From NCBI GenBank assembly GCA_046074525.1, contig JBJTOK010000038.1, forward strand, positions 128,305 to 192,304: a stretch of 64,000 nt of DNA, read 5' to 3'. The stretch is from Flavobacteriales bacterium (GTDB lineage Bacteria; Bacteroidota; Bacteroidia; Flavobacteriales_C; GCA-002722245). The notes beneath the pieces are model-generated. The model ran no database searches. It was not told where the DNA came from and saw only the letters and a list, made by a program, of their open reading frames with translations. Below, piece after piece: positions 15,511 through 43,353 of this stretch (positions within the stretch are counted from its first letter, which is position 1; the number at the start of each line of letters is the position of its first letter). Both the position numbers and the translations under genes were made by a program.

Positions 15511-15523
15511 CTTTTCTCGAGTA

Positions 15524-15598
15524 TGTCATCCTGAGGGTACTCCCGAAGGACCTATCGCCCATCACATTAGGTCTTTCGGGAGTACCCTCAAGATGACA
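15524..15598 (-). repeat. Near-perfect inverted repeat (29-bp arms, 17-nt loop) occupying the trpG-trpD intergenic spacer
   Basis: Left arm 15524..15552 tgtcatcctgagggtactcccgaaggacc; right arm 15570..15598 ggtctttcgggagtaccctcaagatgaca; only two mismatches and both are G:U-compatible in RNA. Ends 13 nt before trpD ATG; no U-tract after it. Confidence 0.6.
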
Positions 15599-15634
15599 AA
15601 TGTGGTTTAGGGCCGCTAAGTATCAAAATTTAAT

Positions 15635-16213: not shown

Positions 16214-17629
16214 TTAAACTAATTCTTCTGCTAATTCCAGCGCCCTGTGCAAGGCAGCCAGTTTGTTATACACTTCCTGTTTTTCGCTTTCATTCACCGA
16301 TAAATCAACAATTCCAGCCCCGGCCTGATAGAACAAAGTTTTGTTCTTGCTAAGGAAAGAACGGATGATGATGGCATGATTGAAATCGCCGTTAAAACCA
16401 ATAAAACCTATGCAGCCACCATAAATACCACGCTGATTTTTCTCGTAGCGGTTGATGAGTTGCAAGGCCATGTGCTTAGGCGCTCCCGAGAGTGTTCCCG
16501 CCGGGAAAGTATCGGCTACAATGCGTAATTTATTGGTGCCTTCCTGGATTTTACCGGTTACTTTCGACACCAAATGAATCACATGCGAGTAGTATTGCAC
16601 TTCTTTGTAAGTCTCTACCGTTACCTTTTCCGAGCTGCGGCTCAAATCGTTGCGGGCGAGGTCCACCAGCATTACGTGCTCCGAATTTTCTTTCGGATCG
16701 GCCATGAGCTGGCGCGCCAGTTCAGCATCTTTTTCATCATCGCCGGTGCGGCGGAAAGTACCGGCAATCGGGTAAATCGTAGCGTCATTATTATGAATAA
16801 CAATTTGCGCTTCGGGCGATGAACCGAAGATCTTATAAGTTCCATAATCAAAGTAAAACAAGTAGGGCGAAGGATTCACCGAACGCAAAGCGCGGTACAA
16901 AGTGAAATCGTCACCTTCAAATTTCTGGGAAAACTCACGCGACAATACCAGCTGAAAAACATCGCCACGGCGGCAGTGCTGCTTGGCTTTTTCAATCACG
17001 TCAAGGTAAGTCTCGTCGGTAAAATTACTTTCCTGCTCACCTTTTTTCCTGAACGAAGCCGAAGGAGATGACGTTTGCTGAATGAGTTCCATGATCTGCT
17101 CTATCGGCACCACATTGGTTCCCGACTCCTCGCAGTGGTGTTCAAACAAATAAAGTTCGTTGCGGAAATGGTTGATGGCAATGATATTCTGGAAGATGAA
17201 ATAGTGCATATCCGGCACTTTCTTTTCGTCTTTTTCCTTGTAATCGAAATCGATGTCCTCAAAATGCCTTACTCCTTCAAAGCTGGTAAAACCAAAGAGT
17301 CCGTTGTTGATGAACTTGAATTCATTGGCATCGGGAACGAAAGAATCAATGAAGTTTTTCATTTCCTCCACTACATCGGTTTTATCGGTGTCTTTCATGG
17401 AGAAAGTACCATCGGGAAAAACCGAGGTAATCTTTCCGTCTTCCACTTTGTAGGAAGCCATGGGATTAAAACAGATAAAAGAGTGGCTGTCTTTGTTGCC
17501 GTGGTAATCAGAACTTTCCAGGAGGAAGCTGTTTTGGAAGCGCTTCCTGATATTTAAGTAAATGCTCACCGGAGTAATCGTGTCGGCCAGCAGTTTCTTG
17601 TACTTGGTGGTAATTTTAAACTTTTGCAT
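16214..17629 (-). CDS. trpE: Anthranilate synthase component I
   Basis: Chorismate-binding enzyme motifs (GAGIVDLSVNESE..., LSGAPK); ATG at 17629. Confidence 0.95.
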   Translation of the reverse strand: MQKFKITTKYKKLLADTITPVSIYLNIRKRFQNSFLLESSDYHGNKDSHSFICFNPMASYKVEDGKITSVFPDGTFSMKDTDKTDVVEEMKNFIDSFVPDANEFKFINNGLFGFTSFEGVRHFEDIDFDYKEKDEKKVPDMHYFIFQNIIAINHFRNELYLFEHHCEESGTNVVPIEQIMELIQQTSSPSASFRKKGEQESNFTDETYLDVIEKAKQHCRRGDVFQLVLSREFSQKFEGDDFTLYRALRSVNPSPYLFYFDYGTYKIFGSSPEAQIVIHNNDATIYPIAGTFRRTGDDEKDAELARQLMADPKENSEHVMLVDLARNDLSRSSEKVTVETYKEVQYYSHVIHLVSKVTGKIQEGTNKLRIVADTFPAGTLSGAPKHMALQLINRYEKNQRGIYGGCIGFIGFNGDFNHAIIIRSFLSKNKTLFYQAGAGIVDLSVNESEKQEVYNKLAALHRALELAEELV

Positions 17630-17666: not shown

Positions 17667-17697
17667 AAAACAAAAAAGCCCCGCTGGGAAGCGAGGC
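17667..17697 (-). terminator. Intrinsic terminator hairpin of putative trp attenuator (between leader peptide and trpE)
   Basis: Minus strand reads GCCUCGC-UUCCCA-GCGGGGC followed by UUUUUUGUUUU (plus coords hairpin 17678..17697, A-run 17667..17677); 37 nt upstream of trpE ATG. Confidence 0.55.
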
Positions 17698-17723
17698 TTA
17701 TATATATTTTAAAGCGCAACGAT

Positions 17724-17783
17724 TCACAGCCAAACAGACTCTGAAACTTGCCAACGCCAATTATTTCTTTGTAAAATGATCAT
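17724..17783 (-). CDS. trpL: Putative trp leader peptide (19 aa, 3 Trp codons)
   Basis: Minus-strand ORF ATG ATC ATT TTA CAA AGA AAT AAT TGG CGT TGG CAA GTT TCA GAG TCT GTT TGG CTG TGA = MIILQRNNWRWQVSESVWL*; Trp codons clustered (W-R-W), stop 26 nt before terminator hairpin. Too short for the ORF track. Confidence 0.5.
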   Translation of the reverse strand: MIILQRNNWRWQVSESVWL

Positions 17784-17814
17784 GAACCAAAGCTAAGGCA
17801 CAAATCAGCAAAAT

Positions 17815-17822
17815 CAAAAATA
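17815..17822 (-). promoter_or_regulatory. Candidate Bacteroidota-type -7 promoter box (TAttTTTG) for the trpL-trp operon transcript
   Basis: Minus strand TATTTTTG matches the TAnnTTTG -7 consensus of Bacteroidota sigmaA promoters, 31 nt upstream of leader ATG; an upstream TTG lies 16 nt away, which is shorter than optimal spacing. Confidence 0.2.
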
Positions 17823-17911: not shown

Positions 17912-18412
17912 ATGATAACACTGACTCCCAAACAGGAAAAACTGAAAAGCAGAATGCTCAATCCTTTTGTGTTTTTCCTTTTCACTTTGTTTAAAGTGCC
18001 GGCGGTAGCCATTGCAGGAATACGTGTAAAAACGCTGGATGCCGGGAAATGCACGGTGACCGTTCCGTTTAAGTTTCTTAATAAAAATCCTTTTCAATCA
18101 ATGTACTTCGCCGTGCAAGCAATGGCTGCCGAGATATCCACCGCTATTCCGGCGATGCTCGCCATTGAAAAGCACGACGTTTCTTTTGCCATGCTGGTAG
18201 TAAAAACGGAAGCTGAATTTTTTAAGAAGGGAATCTCAAAAATCACTTTTGTTTGTGAAGACGGGAAAGCTTTTGCTGAAGCATTGGAGAAAAGCATTGC
18301 CACCAAAGAACCGGTTACCGTGAAAGCCAAAACCCTTGGAACAATGGCCGACGGGACGGTGGTTTCGGAGTTTTATTTTACGTGGTCGTTTAAGGCGAGG
18401 GAGAAGAAATAG
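17912..18412 (+). CDS. DUF4442-like hotdog-fold (thioesterase-like) protein
   Basis: Size and sequence pattern (LNPFVFFLFTLFKVP...AIAG...SMYFAVQAMAAE) typical of DUF4442/YiiD C-terminal family; divergent from trp leader. Confidence 0.45.
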   Translation: MITLTPKQEKLKSRMLNPFVFFLFTLFKVPAVAIAGIRVKTLDAGKCTVTVPFKFLNKNPFQSMYFAVQAMAAEISTAIPAMLAIEKHDVSFAMLVVKTEAEFFKKGISKITFVCEDGKAFAEALEKSIATKEPVTVKAKTLGTMADGTVVSEFYFTWSFKAREKK

Positions 18413-41907: not shown

Positions 41908-42984
41908 ATGAGCGAAACAGCTACACAAATCAAGCCGGGCGTAATCACCGGAAAAGGCGTTCAACAAGTCTTTGAACTGGCTAAAGCCAAAAAATTTGCA
42001 CTTCCAGCCGTAAACGTTACGGGTACCAATACAATGAATGCCGTGATGGAAACTGCTGTTGCAGTAAATGCACCGGCGATTATCCAATTCTCTAACGGAG
42101 GGGCTGTCTTCAACGCCGGTAAAGGCTTGAAAAACGACGGTCAGCGCGCGGCTATTGCAGGTGCTGTATCTGGTGCTCACCATGTATGGGAAATGGCTGA
42201 ACTCTACGGAGCCAGAATCATTCTTCATACCGACCATTGCGCAAAAAACCTTTTGCCATGGATGGACGGAATGCTGACTGCCGGCGAAAAATTCTTCAAG
42301 GCAAACGGAGTACCTCTGTTTTCTTCTCATATGATCGACCTTTCTGAGGAACCTTTGCACGAGAATATTGAAATCTGCAAAAAGTATCTGGAGAGAATGG
42401 CGAAAATGGGAATGACCCTCGAAATTGAATTAGGTGTAACTGGTGGTGAGGAAGATGGCGTTGACAACTCTGATGTTGATAGCTCTAAACTTTACACTCA
42501 GCCTGAAGAAGTAGCTTATGCTTACGAAGAATTGAAAAAAGTGAGCGACAACTTTACTGTTGCTGCTGCCTTCGGTAACGTACACGGTGTTTACAAACCA
42601 GGCAACGTGAAGCTGACTCCGAAAATCCTTGATAACTCACAAAAATACATCGAGAAAAAATACAATACTGGAGCTAACCCGGTTAACTTCGTATTCCACG
42701 GTGGTTCCGGCTCTTCAGTTGAGGAAATCCGTGAAGCTATTTCTTACGGTGCTATCAAGATGAACATCGACACCGACTTGCAATGGGCGTTCTGGGAAGG
42801 AATCAAAAACTTCTACGAAGGCAAAAAAGGATACCTGCAAGGACAAATCGGTAACCCTGAAGGTGAAGATGCTCCAAACAAGAAATACTATGACCCACGT
42901 GTTTGGATGCGTAAGGCTGAGGAATCTTTCAAAGCAAGATTGACTCAATCTTTCCAGGACCTGAACAACGTAAACACGCTGTAA
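41908..42984 (+). CDS. fba: Fructose-bisphosphate aldolase, class II
   Basis: Class II FBA motifs (ILHTDHC, HGGSGS). Confidence 0.92.
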   Translation: MSETATQIKPGVITGKGVQQVFELAKAKKFALPAVNVTGTNTMNAVMETAVAVNAPAIIQFSNGGAVFNAGKGLKNDGQRAAIAGAVSGAHHVWEMAELYGARIILHTDHCAKNLLPWMDGMLTAGEKFFKANGVPLFSSHMIDLSEEPLHENIEICKKYLERMAKMGMTLEIELGVTGGEEDGVDNSDVDSSKLYTQPEEVAYAYEELKKVSDNFTVAAAFGNVHGVYKPGNVKLTPKILDNSQKYIEKKYNTGANPVNFVFHGGSGSSVEEIREAISYGAIKMNIDTDLQWAFWEGIKNFYEGKKGYLQGQIGNPEGEDAPNKKYYDPRVWMRKAEESFKARLTQSFQDLNNVNTL

Positions 42985-43003
42985 CAATAGTTGAAATACA
43001 ACA

Positions 43004-43033
43004 AAAAGACTGCCTTTCGGGGCAGTCTTTTTT
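43004..43033. terminator. Bidirectional intrinsic terminator between fba (+) and the 105-aa gene (-)
   Basis: aaaaaGACTGCCtttcgGGGCAGTCtttttt; A-run upstream and T-run downstream. Confidence 0.75.
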
Positions 43034-43035
43034 GT

Positions 43036-43353
43036 TTACGGCAACTTGCTTACAGTATCCGTTTTCATGGTATCCAACATAAACTCTTCTGGCTCGGGCA
43101 TCCCGCGACCAAAATCCTTGTAATCAAATTTCACTTTACTTACTTTTTTCTTTTCCTGCTTCATTTCTTGTTTCTTCACTTCCTCCTTCCTTTCCGGAGT
43201 TTTTTTCTCTTCTTCCTTTTTTACAACAGTGCTTTTAACAGGTGCTTTCTTTTCACCTTCTCCGCCACCTCCACCCCTGTTAGGAAAAAGGAAGGCTGCA
43301 CTCATAAGAATGATAGTAAAGGAGAGTCCGGTAATAATCATTAATCTATTCAT
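43036..43353 (-). CDS. Small membrane-anchored Lys/Glu-rich protein (105 aa)
   Basis: N-terminal TM helix, Gly5 linker, highly charged KE-rich low-complexity region; ATG forms ATGA overlap with upstream DUF2306 gene stop. The overlapping + ORF 42991..43344 is F/L low-complexity and judged antisense noise. Confidence 0.45.
   Translation of the reverse strand: MNRLMIITGLSFTIILMSAAFLFPNRGGGGGEGEKKAPVKSTVVKKEEEKKTPERKEEVKKQEMKQEKKKVSKVKFDYKDFGRGMPEPEEFMLDTMKTDTVSKLP

Follow-up and report, generated by a model that had tools for sequence, protein, structure and literature searches.

A divergent W-R-W member of the Bacteroid-trp leader family upstream of trpE in a Flavobacteriales bacterium, a probable ribosome-mediated attenuator

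The region upstream of trpE was analyzed in a stretch of 64,000 nucleotides of a Flavobacteriales contig (hereafter the window). It contains a short ORF with clustered Trp codons followed by an intrinsic terminator, and this element is a divergent member, with a W-R-W cluster, of the Bacteroid-trp leader family (RF01692); the class itself is not new. Very probably the element is an attenuator of transcription mediated by the ribosome, in which translation of the 19-codon leader ORF serves to sense charged tRNA-Trp. The trpL-type attenuator put forward by the initial annotation of this DNA is supported by several observations: conservation of the arrangement among relatives, its correspondence to a known class, the position of the terminator in a divergent region, and a competing antiterminator. 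Our analysis adds to the description of the class an antiterminator that includes a box at the leader stop codon, a likely leaderless arrangement, and the fact that the RF01692 model misses much of the family.

The trpE leader region and its conservation

NCBIfam matches delineate an operon trpE-trpG-trpD-trpC-trpF-trpB-trpA on the minus strand, from 17629 to 11125. The curated cutoffs were cleared by the TrpB, TrpA, TrpD and TrpC matches. The first gene (ATG at 17629) encodes a 471-aa anthranilate synthase component I, whose match of 429 bits is under the curated cutoff of 517.7; this protein is 100% identical to one from a 'Flavobacteriales bacterium' MAG. Trp accounts for 0.3% of the content of the seven trp operon proteins. 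The nearest gene upstream of trpE is located at 17912-18412 on the plus strand. The intergenic region is therefore divergent and the terminator of the leader cannot end an upstream gene: an intrinsic terminator stands between the leader ORF and trpE with no gene end to explain it, as is expected of an attenuator. The leader element accounts for an intergenic region of 282 nt left unannotated in the window. The product of the divergent neighbour, a protein of 166 aa, gave no match with NCBIfam. Its counterparts in three of the closest relatives (loci L161-L163) bear PF14539 (DUF4442), which indicates that synteny with trpE is kept in the closest relatives only.

The features of the leader are listed in Table 1. 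The initial annotation had reported an ORF of 19 codons with three Trp codons, two of them in a W-R-W cluster, and its coordinates check out. The same holds for the distances it gave, i.e. 26 nt from the leader stop to the G+C core of the hairpin (GCCTCGC from 17697), the U6GU4 tract, 37 nt from there to trpE, and a box 31 nt from the leader ATG. As RNA the terminator reads AAGCCUCGCU-UCCC-AGCGGGGCUU, with a predicted energy of -15.7 kcal/mol.

Table 1. Positions of the trp leader features in the window
Feature	Position	Strand	Description	Basis
Probable -33 element TTTG	17815..17818	minus	3' end of TATTTTTG (17822-17815); 19 nt to TAGCTTTG	
Probable sigma-A -7 box TAGCTTTG	17795-17788	minus	4 nt 5' of leader ATG	fits TAnnTTTG
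Leader ORF, trpL-like	17783-17724	minus	ATG at 17783; 19 codons, MIILQRNNWRWQVSESVWL; stop TGA 17726-17724	
Trp codons W9, W11, W18	17759-57, 17753-51, 17732-30	minus		read from sequence
Regulatory codons UGG-CGU-UGG (W9-R10-W11)	17751..17759	minus	proposed ribosome stall site	sequence and conservation
Segment 1	17737..17758	minus	5' arm of hairpin P1 (anti-antiterminator)	minimum-free-energy and centroid folds
Segment 2	17712..17731	minus	P1 3' arm and antiterminator 5' strand (GCUGUGAAUCGUUGC..GCUU); contains UGA 17726-24	folds, family tests
Segment 3	17683..17699	minus	terminator 5' arm, loop and first 3 nt of 3' arm; antiterminator 3' strand	folds, family covariation
Terminator hairpin (segments 3:4)	17699-17676	minus	stem AAGCCTCGCT/AGCGGGGCTT, 10 bp, 6 G-C pairs; loop TCCC	
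U tract U6GU4	17677-17667	minus	ends 37 nt before trpE ATG 17629	

Conservation was analyzed on trpE loci of three origins: species-representative genomes (80 loci), metagenomes (80 loci) and contigs of the closest relatives (nine, with TrpE identities of 65-94%). The short ORF with clustered Trp codons that the initial annotation anticipated upstream of orthologous trpE genes is indeed widespread. A short upstream ORF with WWW or WRW was present at about 147 of 160 related Bacteroidota loci; among the genome loci, 76 of 80 have it, at a distance of 60-250 nt from trpE, and so do most metagenome loci. These loci belong to Flavobacteriaceae, Cyclobacteriaceae, other Cytophagales and Sphingobacteriaceae, and thus to the Flavobacteriales, Cytophagales and Sphingobacteriales. 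All nine sequences of the window clade (the window, L161-L166, L001 and L081) have an unchanged WRW cluster, with UGG CGU UGG leaders such as MNKQITIWRWQVSESVWL and MIRNTNTWRWQVSPW; farther relatives have WWW in its place, a typical leader being MNTILNNTWWWNLRQTS. A hairpin with a U tract, stronger than -6 kcal/mol, was found 3' of the leader ORF at 140 of the 147 loci, and in 42 diverse members the terminator stem is 93.6% paired and shows 77 double-sided changes.

Does such a cluster occur by chance, which the initial annotation held to be unlikely? The window has 773 ORFs that start with ATG and span 10-30 codons; 7 of them contain at least three Trp codons and 8 contain WW or WxW (about 1% each), so that the Trp-cluster ORF, taken alone at this locus, is only suggestive of something other than chance. 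That the same arrangement is kept in the related loci brings it far beyond chance, and the claim stands on this wider ground. As judged by these sequence comparisons, the leader ORF and terminator upstream of trpE form a conserved element and not a chance association.

The third Trp codon deserves a separate remark. W18 is located in the antiterminator strand directly 5' of the leader stop. It is kept in L161-L163 and missing from L164 and L165, and the leaders of L001, L081 and L166 finish in Trp. Since two clade members do without it, W18 is probably a by-product of constraints on the RNA.

Another structure was observed inside the operon. The trpG-trpD gap (15511-15634) contains a near-perfect hairpin of 73 nt at 15525-15597 (minus strand), single-copy in the window and without a U tract; the gap as a whole (124 nt) has a folding energy of -59.8 kcal/mol (z = -10 compared to shuffles). 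At the same site long but different hairpins are present in L162, L165 and L166, and none in L161, L167 and L168. This hairpin looks like an inserted palindromic element, or is possibly a structure for mRNA processing or stabilization.

Relation to known leader classes

RF01692 (Bacteroid-trp, 'Bacteroidete tryptophan peptide leader RNA'; Weinberg 2010) was described as a presumed attenuation leader, and its original seed already contains a W-Q-W member (supplement of PMC2864571). In Flavobacterium psychrophilum the motif was mapped on the transcript upstream of trpE-pabA-trpDCFBA; the authors cite condition-specific read-through, and expression of the operon was maximal in minimal medium (supplement of PMC9723704), observations that speak indirectly for a read-through raised by limiting charged tRNA-Trp. 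In the literature searched we found predictions and transcriptome mapping only, and no experimentally dissected trp attenuator in Bacteroidota.

The correspondence between this family and the window element was examined feature by feature. Both are 5' leaders of trpE (or, in the family, trpB) in Bacteroidota, in which a short ORF with clustered UGG codons is followed by an intrinsic terminator; W9, W11 and W18 provide the conserved UGG codons, of which the family has at least two. They share a loosely conserved hairpin with Trp codons in or beside the 5' arm, which in the window is P1, together with a GUGAA-like box and an AU-rich linker, and the loci matched by the model occupy the position orthologous to that of the window element. 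They differ in the cluster (WWW in the family, W-R-W in the window) and in the sequences of the terminator stem and loop. The RF01692 model itself ends at the 5' arm of the terminator and does not include an antiterminator.

We assign the window element to the family because of its orthologous position, its leader ORF and the shared architecture, and not because of a model score. No match to RF01692 (gathering threshold 49 bits) was obtained in the window when 1.5 kb were scanned at E<=1, nor when the cutoff was relaxed to E<=10 for a 300-nt stretch. The model gave none at E<=1 in the 11 nearest relatives (the W-R-W clade and its WWW/WWC relatives), nor in the Cytophagales and Sphingobacteriales loci tested. 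Matches above threshold were obtained at 8 of 20 tested loci, all of them Flavobacteriaceae (L019, L004 and L007 among them). The model is thus skewed to Flavobacteriaceae and too narrow, and as a consequence the annotation of trp regulation is incomplete in uncultured Flavobacteriales, Cytophagales and Sphingobacteriales. The orthologous leaders missed (12 of the 20 at the gathering threshold, all 11 at E<=1) all have a Trp-cluster ORF and a terminator; they are drawn from L001, L002, L015, L029, L044, L050, L052, L056, L064, L068, L069, L071, L081, L082 and L161-L169.

A covariance model was built from 35 family members, the window clade being left out. Its top-ranking match in the 64-kb window is the leader itself (17669-17765, 35 bits, E ~6e-4), a score to be read against the 27 bits of a plain terminator, since most of it derives from the terminator; with a margin of 8 bits, the model is a weak test of homology. 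The second match (42964-43037, plus strand, 27 bits) is an ordinary intrinsic terminator that straddles the stop of the ORF 41908-42984; this hairpin lies just downstream of the ORF stop and is not an attenuator, and it calibrates the score of a bare terminator.

Comparison with the trp leader of E. coli (trpL, RF00513) gives a picture of similar functioning without detectable kinship. The four segments and their 1:2, 2:3 and 3:4 pairings are the same, with Trp codons in segment 1 and a stop codon beside or inside segment 2, and in both the terminator outweighs the antiterminator in stability. From the Trp codons to the last base of the U tract there are 82-87 nt in E. coli and about 85 nt in the window. 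Two differences were noted: the window leader has no Shine-Dalgarno sequence and is probably leaderless, and its antiterminator spans the terminator loop into the 3' arm, beyond the 5' arm. The RF00513 model gave 15.9 bits (E=1.1, gathering threshold 41) in the window, i.e. no detectable sequence homology. The window element would work like trpL and is neither a homologue nor a member of that class. Leaders of his, phe, thr, leu and ilv operons and actinobacterial trp leaders likewise have a codon-enriched short ORF upstream of a terminator, and hisG, pheA and ilvE leaders have been proposed in F. psychrophilum (PMC9723704); these other attenuators differ from the window element by the amino acid concerned and have no sequence relationship with it. 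Sub-threshold Rfam matches (rnk leader, STnc180, isrJ, Phe_leader, Trp_leader) were driven by the terminator and none was considered meaningful.

Control in trans, by a TRAP-like protein, a T-box tRNA sensor or Rho in place of the ribosome, was also considered. Neither a T-box nor any other riboswitch family matched the region at E<=10, and TRAP-type triplets in the leader are limited to one GAG and one UAG, which do not form an array. The terminator is moreover a canonical intrinsic one, and only translation explains a conserved ORF with Trp codons whose stop is placed in segment 2. We regard control of this type as extremely improbable.

Competing pairings and the proposed switch

The initial annotation had not discerned a competing pairing by eye and suggested folding the region to look for one that involves the Trp codons. 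Comparison with relatives did disclose a competing helix, weak in the window, which uses the strand of the stop codon. In the leader RNA, P1 pairs 17751-37 with 17731-16 (-14.1 kcal/mol); the full-length minimum-free-energy fold adds pairs between W9-R10 (GGCGU) and GCGCU in an alternative register, which shifts the GCAA/UUGC pairs. The antiterminator pairs 17730-17716 (GCUG-U-GAA-U-CG-UU-GC) with 17697-17683 (GC-CU-CG-C-UUC-C-CAGC) at -11.5 kcal/mol, and an extra GCUU/AAGC stack is possible. Two other pairings were tried and rejected. One, confined to the base of the terminator 5' arm (GGCU/AGCC and two further pairs, -5.4 kcal/mol), was too weak, and the better antiterminator emerged only once the loop and the first bases of the 3' arm were included. 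The other, seen in the truncated fold without a ribosome, pairs the W-R-W codons GGCGUUGGC with GCC(C)UCG(U)C; a ribosome stalled there would block it and WWW relatives do not have it, for which reasons it was not taken as the regulatory antiterminator.

Positions of the ribosome were then modelled. With W11 in the A site, a stalled ribosome covers segment 1 down to about 17741. With 17741, or a position downstream of it, as the first free base, and with the transcript ending at 17683 or 17680, the minimum-free-energy fold is the antiterminator. If the free RNA begins at 17745 instead (W9 in the A site), the inner hairpin persists, the terminator forms and the antiterminator is not predicted, so that in the model only a stall at W11 works. 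A ribosome at the UGA stop would block the antiterminator: in the footprint model, 86% of the strand 17730-17716 lies inside its footprint.

The switch can be proposed to operate as follows. Transcription would start at or just 5' of the leader AUG, with the ribosome coupled to RNA polymerase, which we assume for Bacteroidota. When Trp is plentiful, the first ribosome would reach the UGA and cover segment 2; the terminator and its U tract would then fold and RNA polymerase would halt before trpE. When Trp-tRNA is scarce, the ribosome would stall at the regulatory codons, most effectively with W11 in the A site, and would hide segment 1, the 5' arm of P1, leaving segment 2 free. The latter would pair with 17697-17683 before the remainder of the terminator 3' arm emerges; formation of the terminator would thereby be prevented, and trpEGDCFBA would be transcribed. 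In the absence of a ribosome, P1 (1:2) and the terminator (3:4) would both fold. A stall at W18, inside segment 2, would favour termination.

Shuffles and covariation both give good support to the antiterminator pairing at the level of the family; in the window the pairing is weak and individually non-significant. Its presence in the family was examined on 136 distinct leaders; for folding, the footprint of the stalled ribosome was masked and only the first 4 nt of the terminator 3' arm were kept. Under these conditions segment 2 formed 6 or more pairs with the terminator in every one of the 136 leaders. The mean number of antiterminator pairs is 13.8, compared to 6.7 in dinucleotide shuffles, and the mean energy is -14.3 kcal/mol compared to -8.6, with p<=0.05 in 76% of the loci. 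In an intermolecular test, the cognate duplex was better than the median shuffle at 97% of the loci; at 91% it was better than duplexes with dissimilar terminators that are not cognate. The relatives have, just 3' of the Trp codons, a box complementary to the apex of the terminator. Examples of box and apex are GCAGUGAA with UUCACUGC (L169), GUAGUGAACU with AGUUCACUGC (L082), GUCGUGA with UCACGAC (L019, which RF01692 matches) and CGGGG..GAACC..AGCC with GGCU..GGUU..CCCCG (L029).

Covariation was examined on two alignments. In a MAFFT alignment of 42 diverse members, based on sequence only, the 13 antiterminator pairs are 62% paired compared to 31-48% with the partner slid, and they show 48 double-sided changes, a value reached by none of 500 shuffles (25.7 +/- 5.4). 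In a model-fitted alignment, which leans to the structure by construction (106 matches, of which 7 are spurious ones on the antisense strand), the antiterminator is 69.6% paired compared to 29-56% when slid, and shows 58 double-sided changes compared to 23.5 +/- 4.0 in shuffles. RNAalifold applied to eight sequences of the clade recovered the terminator only, the alignment being poor across sub-clades.

In the window the antiterminator is interrupted: it has 11-14 pairs and three small internal loops, and its stability does not exceed that of shuffled controls (-11.8 vs -10.2 +/- 1.8, p=0.24). In a swap test within the clade, the terminator apexes of L001 and L169 were better partners for segment 2 of the window than the window's own apex. 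The window keeps the GUGAA box, but its loop UUCCCAG leaves a U-C mismatch where UUCACAG would pair fully, and for this reason the switch may be weaker in the window than in its relatives. This ancestral-looking GUGAA/UUCAC match, mismatched at one position in the window, is bulged in L161, L162 and L164. These results, from the shuffles to the bulges, are those which would be expected if the antiterminator had decayed and no Trp switch operated here, the hairpin being a constitutive terminator that lowers expression of the operon, or one that pauses the polymerase, and the small ORF being incidental or acting otherwise. Against this, the WRW clade retains the ORF, its Trp codons, the stop in segment 2 and the terminator despite TrpE divergences of 6-18%; L165, L166 and L001 differ in their terminator loops, each of which is matched by segment 2 (p 0.02-0.08); and permanent termination before the only trp operon would presumably be costly. 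We consider decay of the switch very unlikely, and retain attenuation by a translating ribosome.

A variant of the mechanism concerns the role of P1. In a three-element attenuator the antiterminator would be the default structure, and termination would occur only if the ribosome reached the stop in time to cover segment 2; P1 would be unnecessary as an anti-antiterminator and may only pause the polymerase. The arrangement of the stop codon fits with this variant as it does with the four-segment switch: it is embedded in the 5' strand of the antiterminator in 108 of the 136 loci, and on average 84% of that strand is under a terminating ribosome. Folds without masking divide the family. In 43 of the 136 loci (L019 and L029 for instance), the unmasked minimum-free-energy fold retains 80% or more of the antiterminator pairs, which favours the variant, whereas 82 of the loci retain at most 20%, and the window, with 29%, keeps few; there P1 is more stable than the antiterminator. 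For the window a three-element attenuator is therefore improbable, and the arrangement with four segments is preferred.

Promoter and leaderless start

Two boxes upstream of the leader ATG fit TAnnTTTG. The initial annotation had described the distal one, TATTTTTG, as a -7-like box; its position is right, and its identity was revised. Consensus promoter elements (-33/-7) have been described (PMC7366714), and TATTTTTG is more likely, from its sequence and spacing, to provide the TTTG of a -33 element than to be a -7 box, a better candidate for which is TAGCTTTG. The layout TTTTTG-19 nt-TAnnTTTG-4 to 7 nt-ATG is shared by L161, L162 and L164, and L163 is nearly identical to L162. Over the related loci, TAnnTTTG is present within 60 nt of the leader ATG in 122 of 136, for a background of 0.003 per position. 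It lies 4-10 nt 5' of the ATG in 70 of the 136, and a second cluster is found at 15-19 nt.

The sigma-A box of F. psychrophilum spans -12 to -5 (PMC9723704). Transposed to the window, this distance places the predicted transcription start near 17783, where the A of the AUG lies, and suggests that the leader mRNA is leaderless. A design common to Bacteroidota trp leaders can be tentatively advanced on this basis, although we give it somewhat less than even chances. It would combine a leaderless or near-leaderless ORF, a feature indicated by the proximity of the -7 box to the AUG (4-10 nt) at about half of the loci, with a conserved 'GUGAA' box that contains the stop codon and pairs with the apex of the terminator, the apex comprising the loop and the adjoining upper ends of both arms. 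No description of this shared start and stop-codon box was found in the literature searched. If both features hold, they would make the family a compact natural system in which to study ribosome recruitment and coupling to RNA polymerase in a phylum without Shine-Dalgarno sequences, and rebuilding RF01692 would be justified. The antiterminator and the -7 box beside the AUG provide concrete predictions that can be mutated, in a phylum where initiation is not led by Shine-Dalgarno sequences.

Leaderless mRNAs are a minority in two Bacteroidota transcriptomes (PMC9723704, PMC7366714). The trp leaders with a -7 box 4-10 nt before the ATG imply leaderless mRNAs or very short 5' UTRs.
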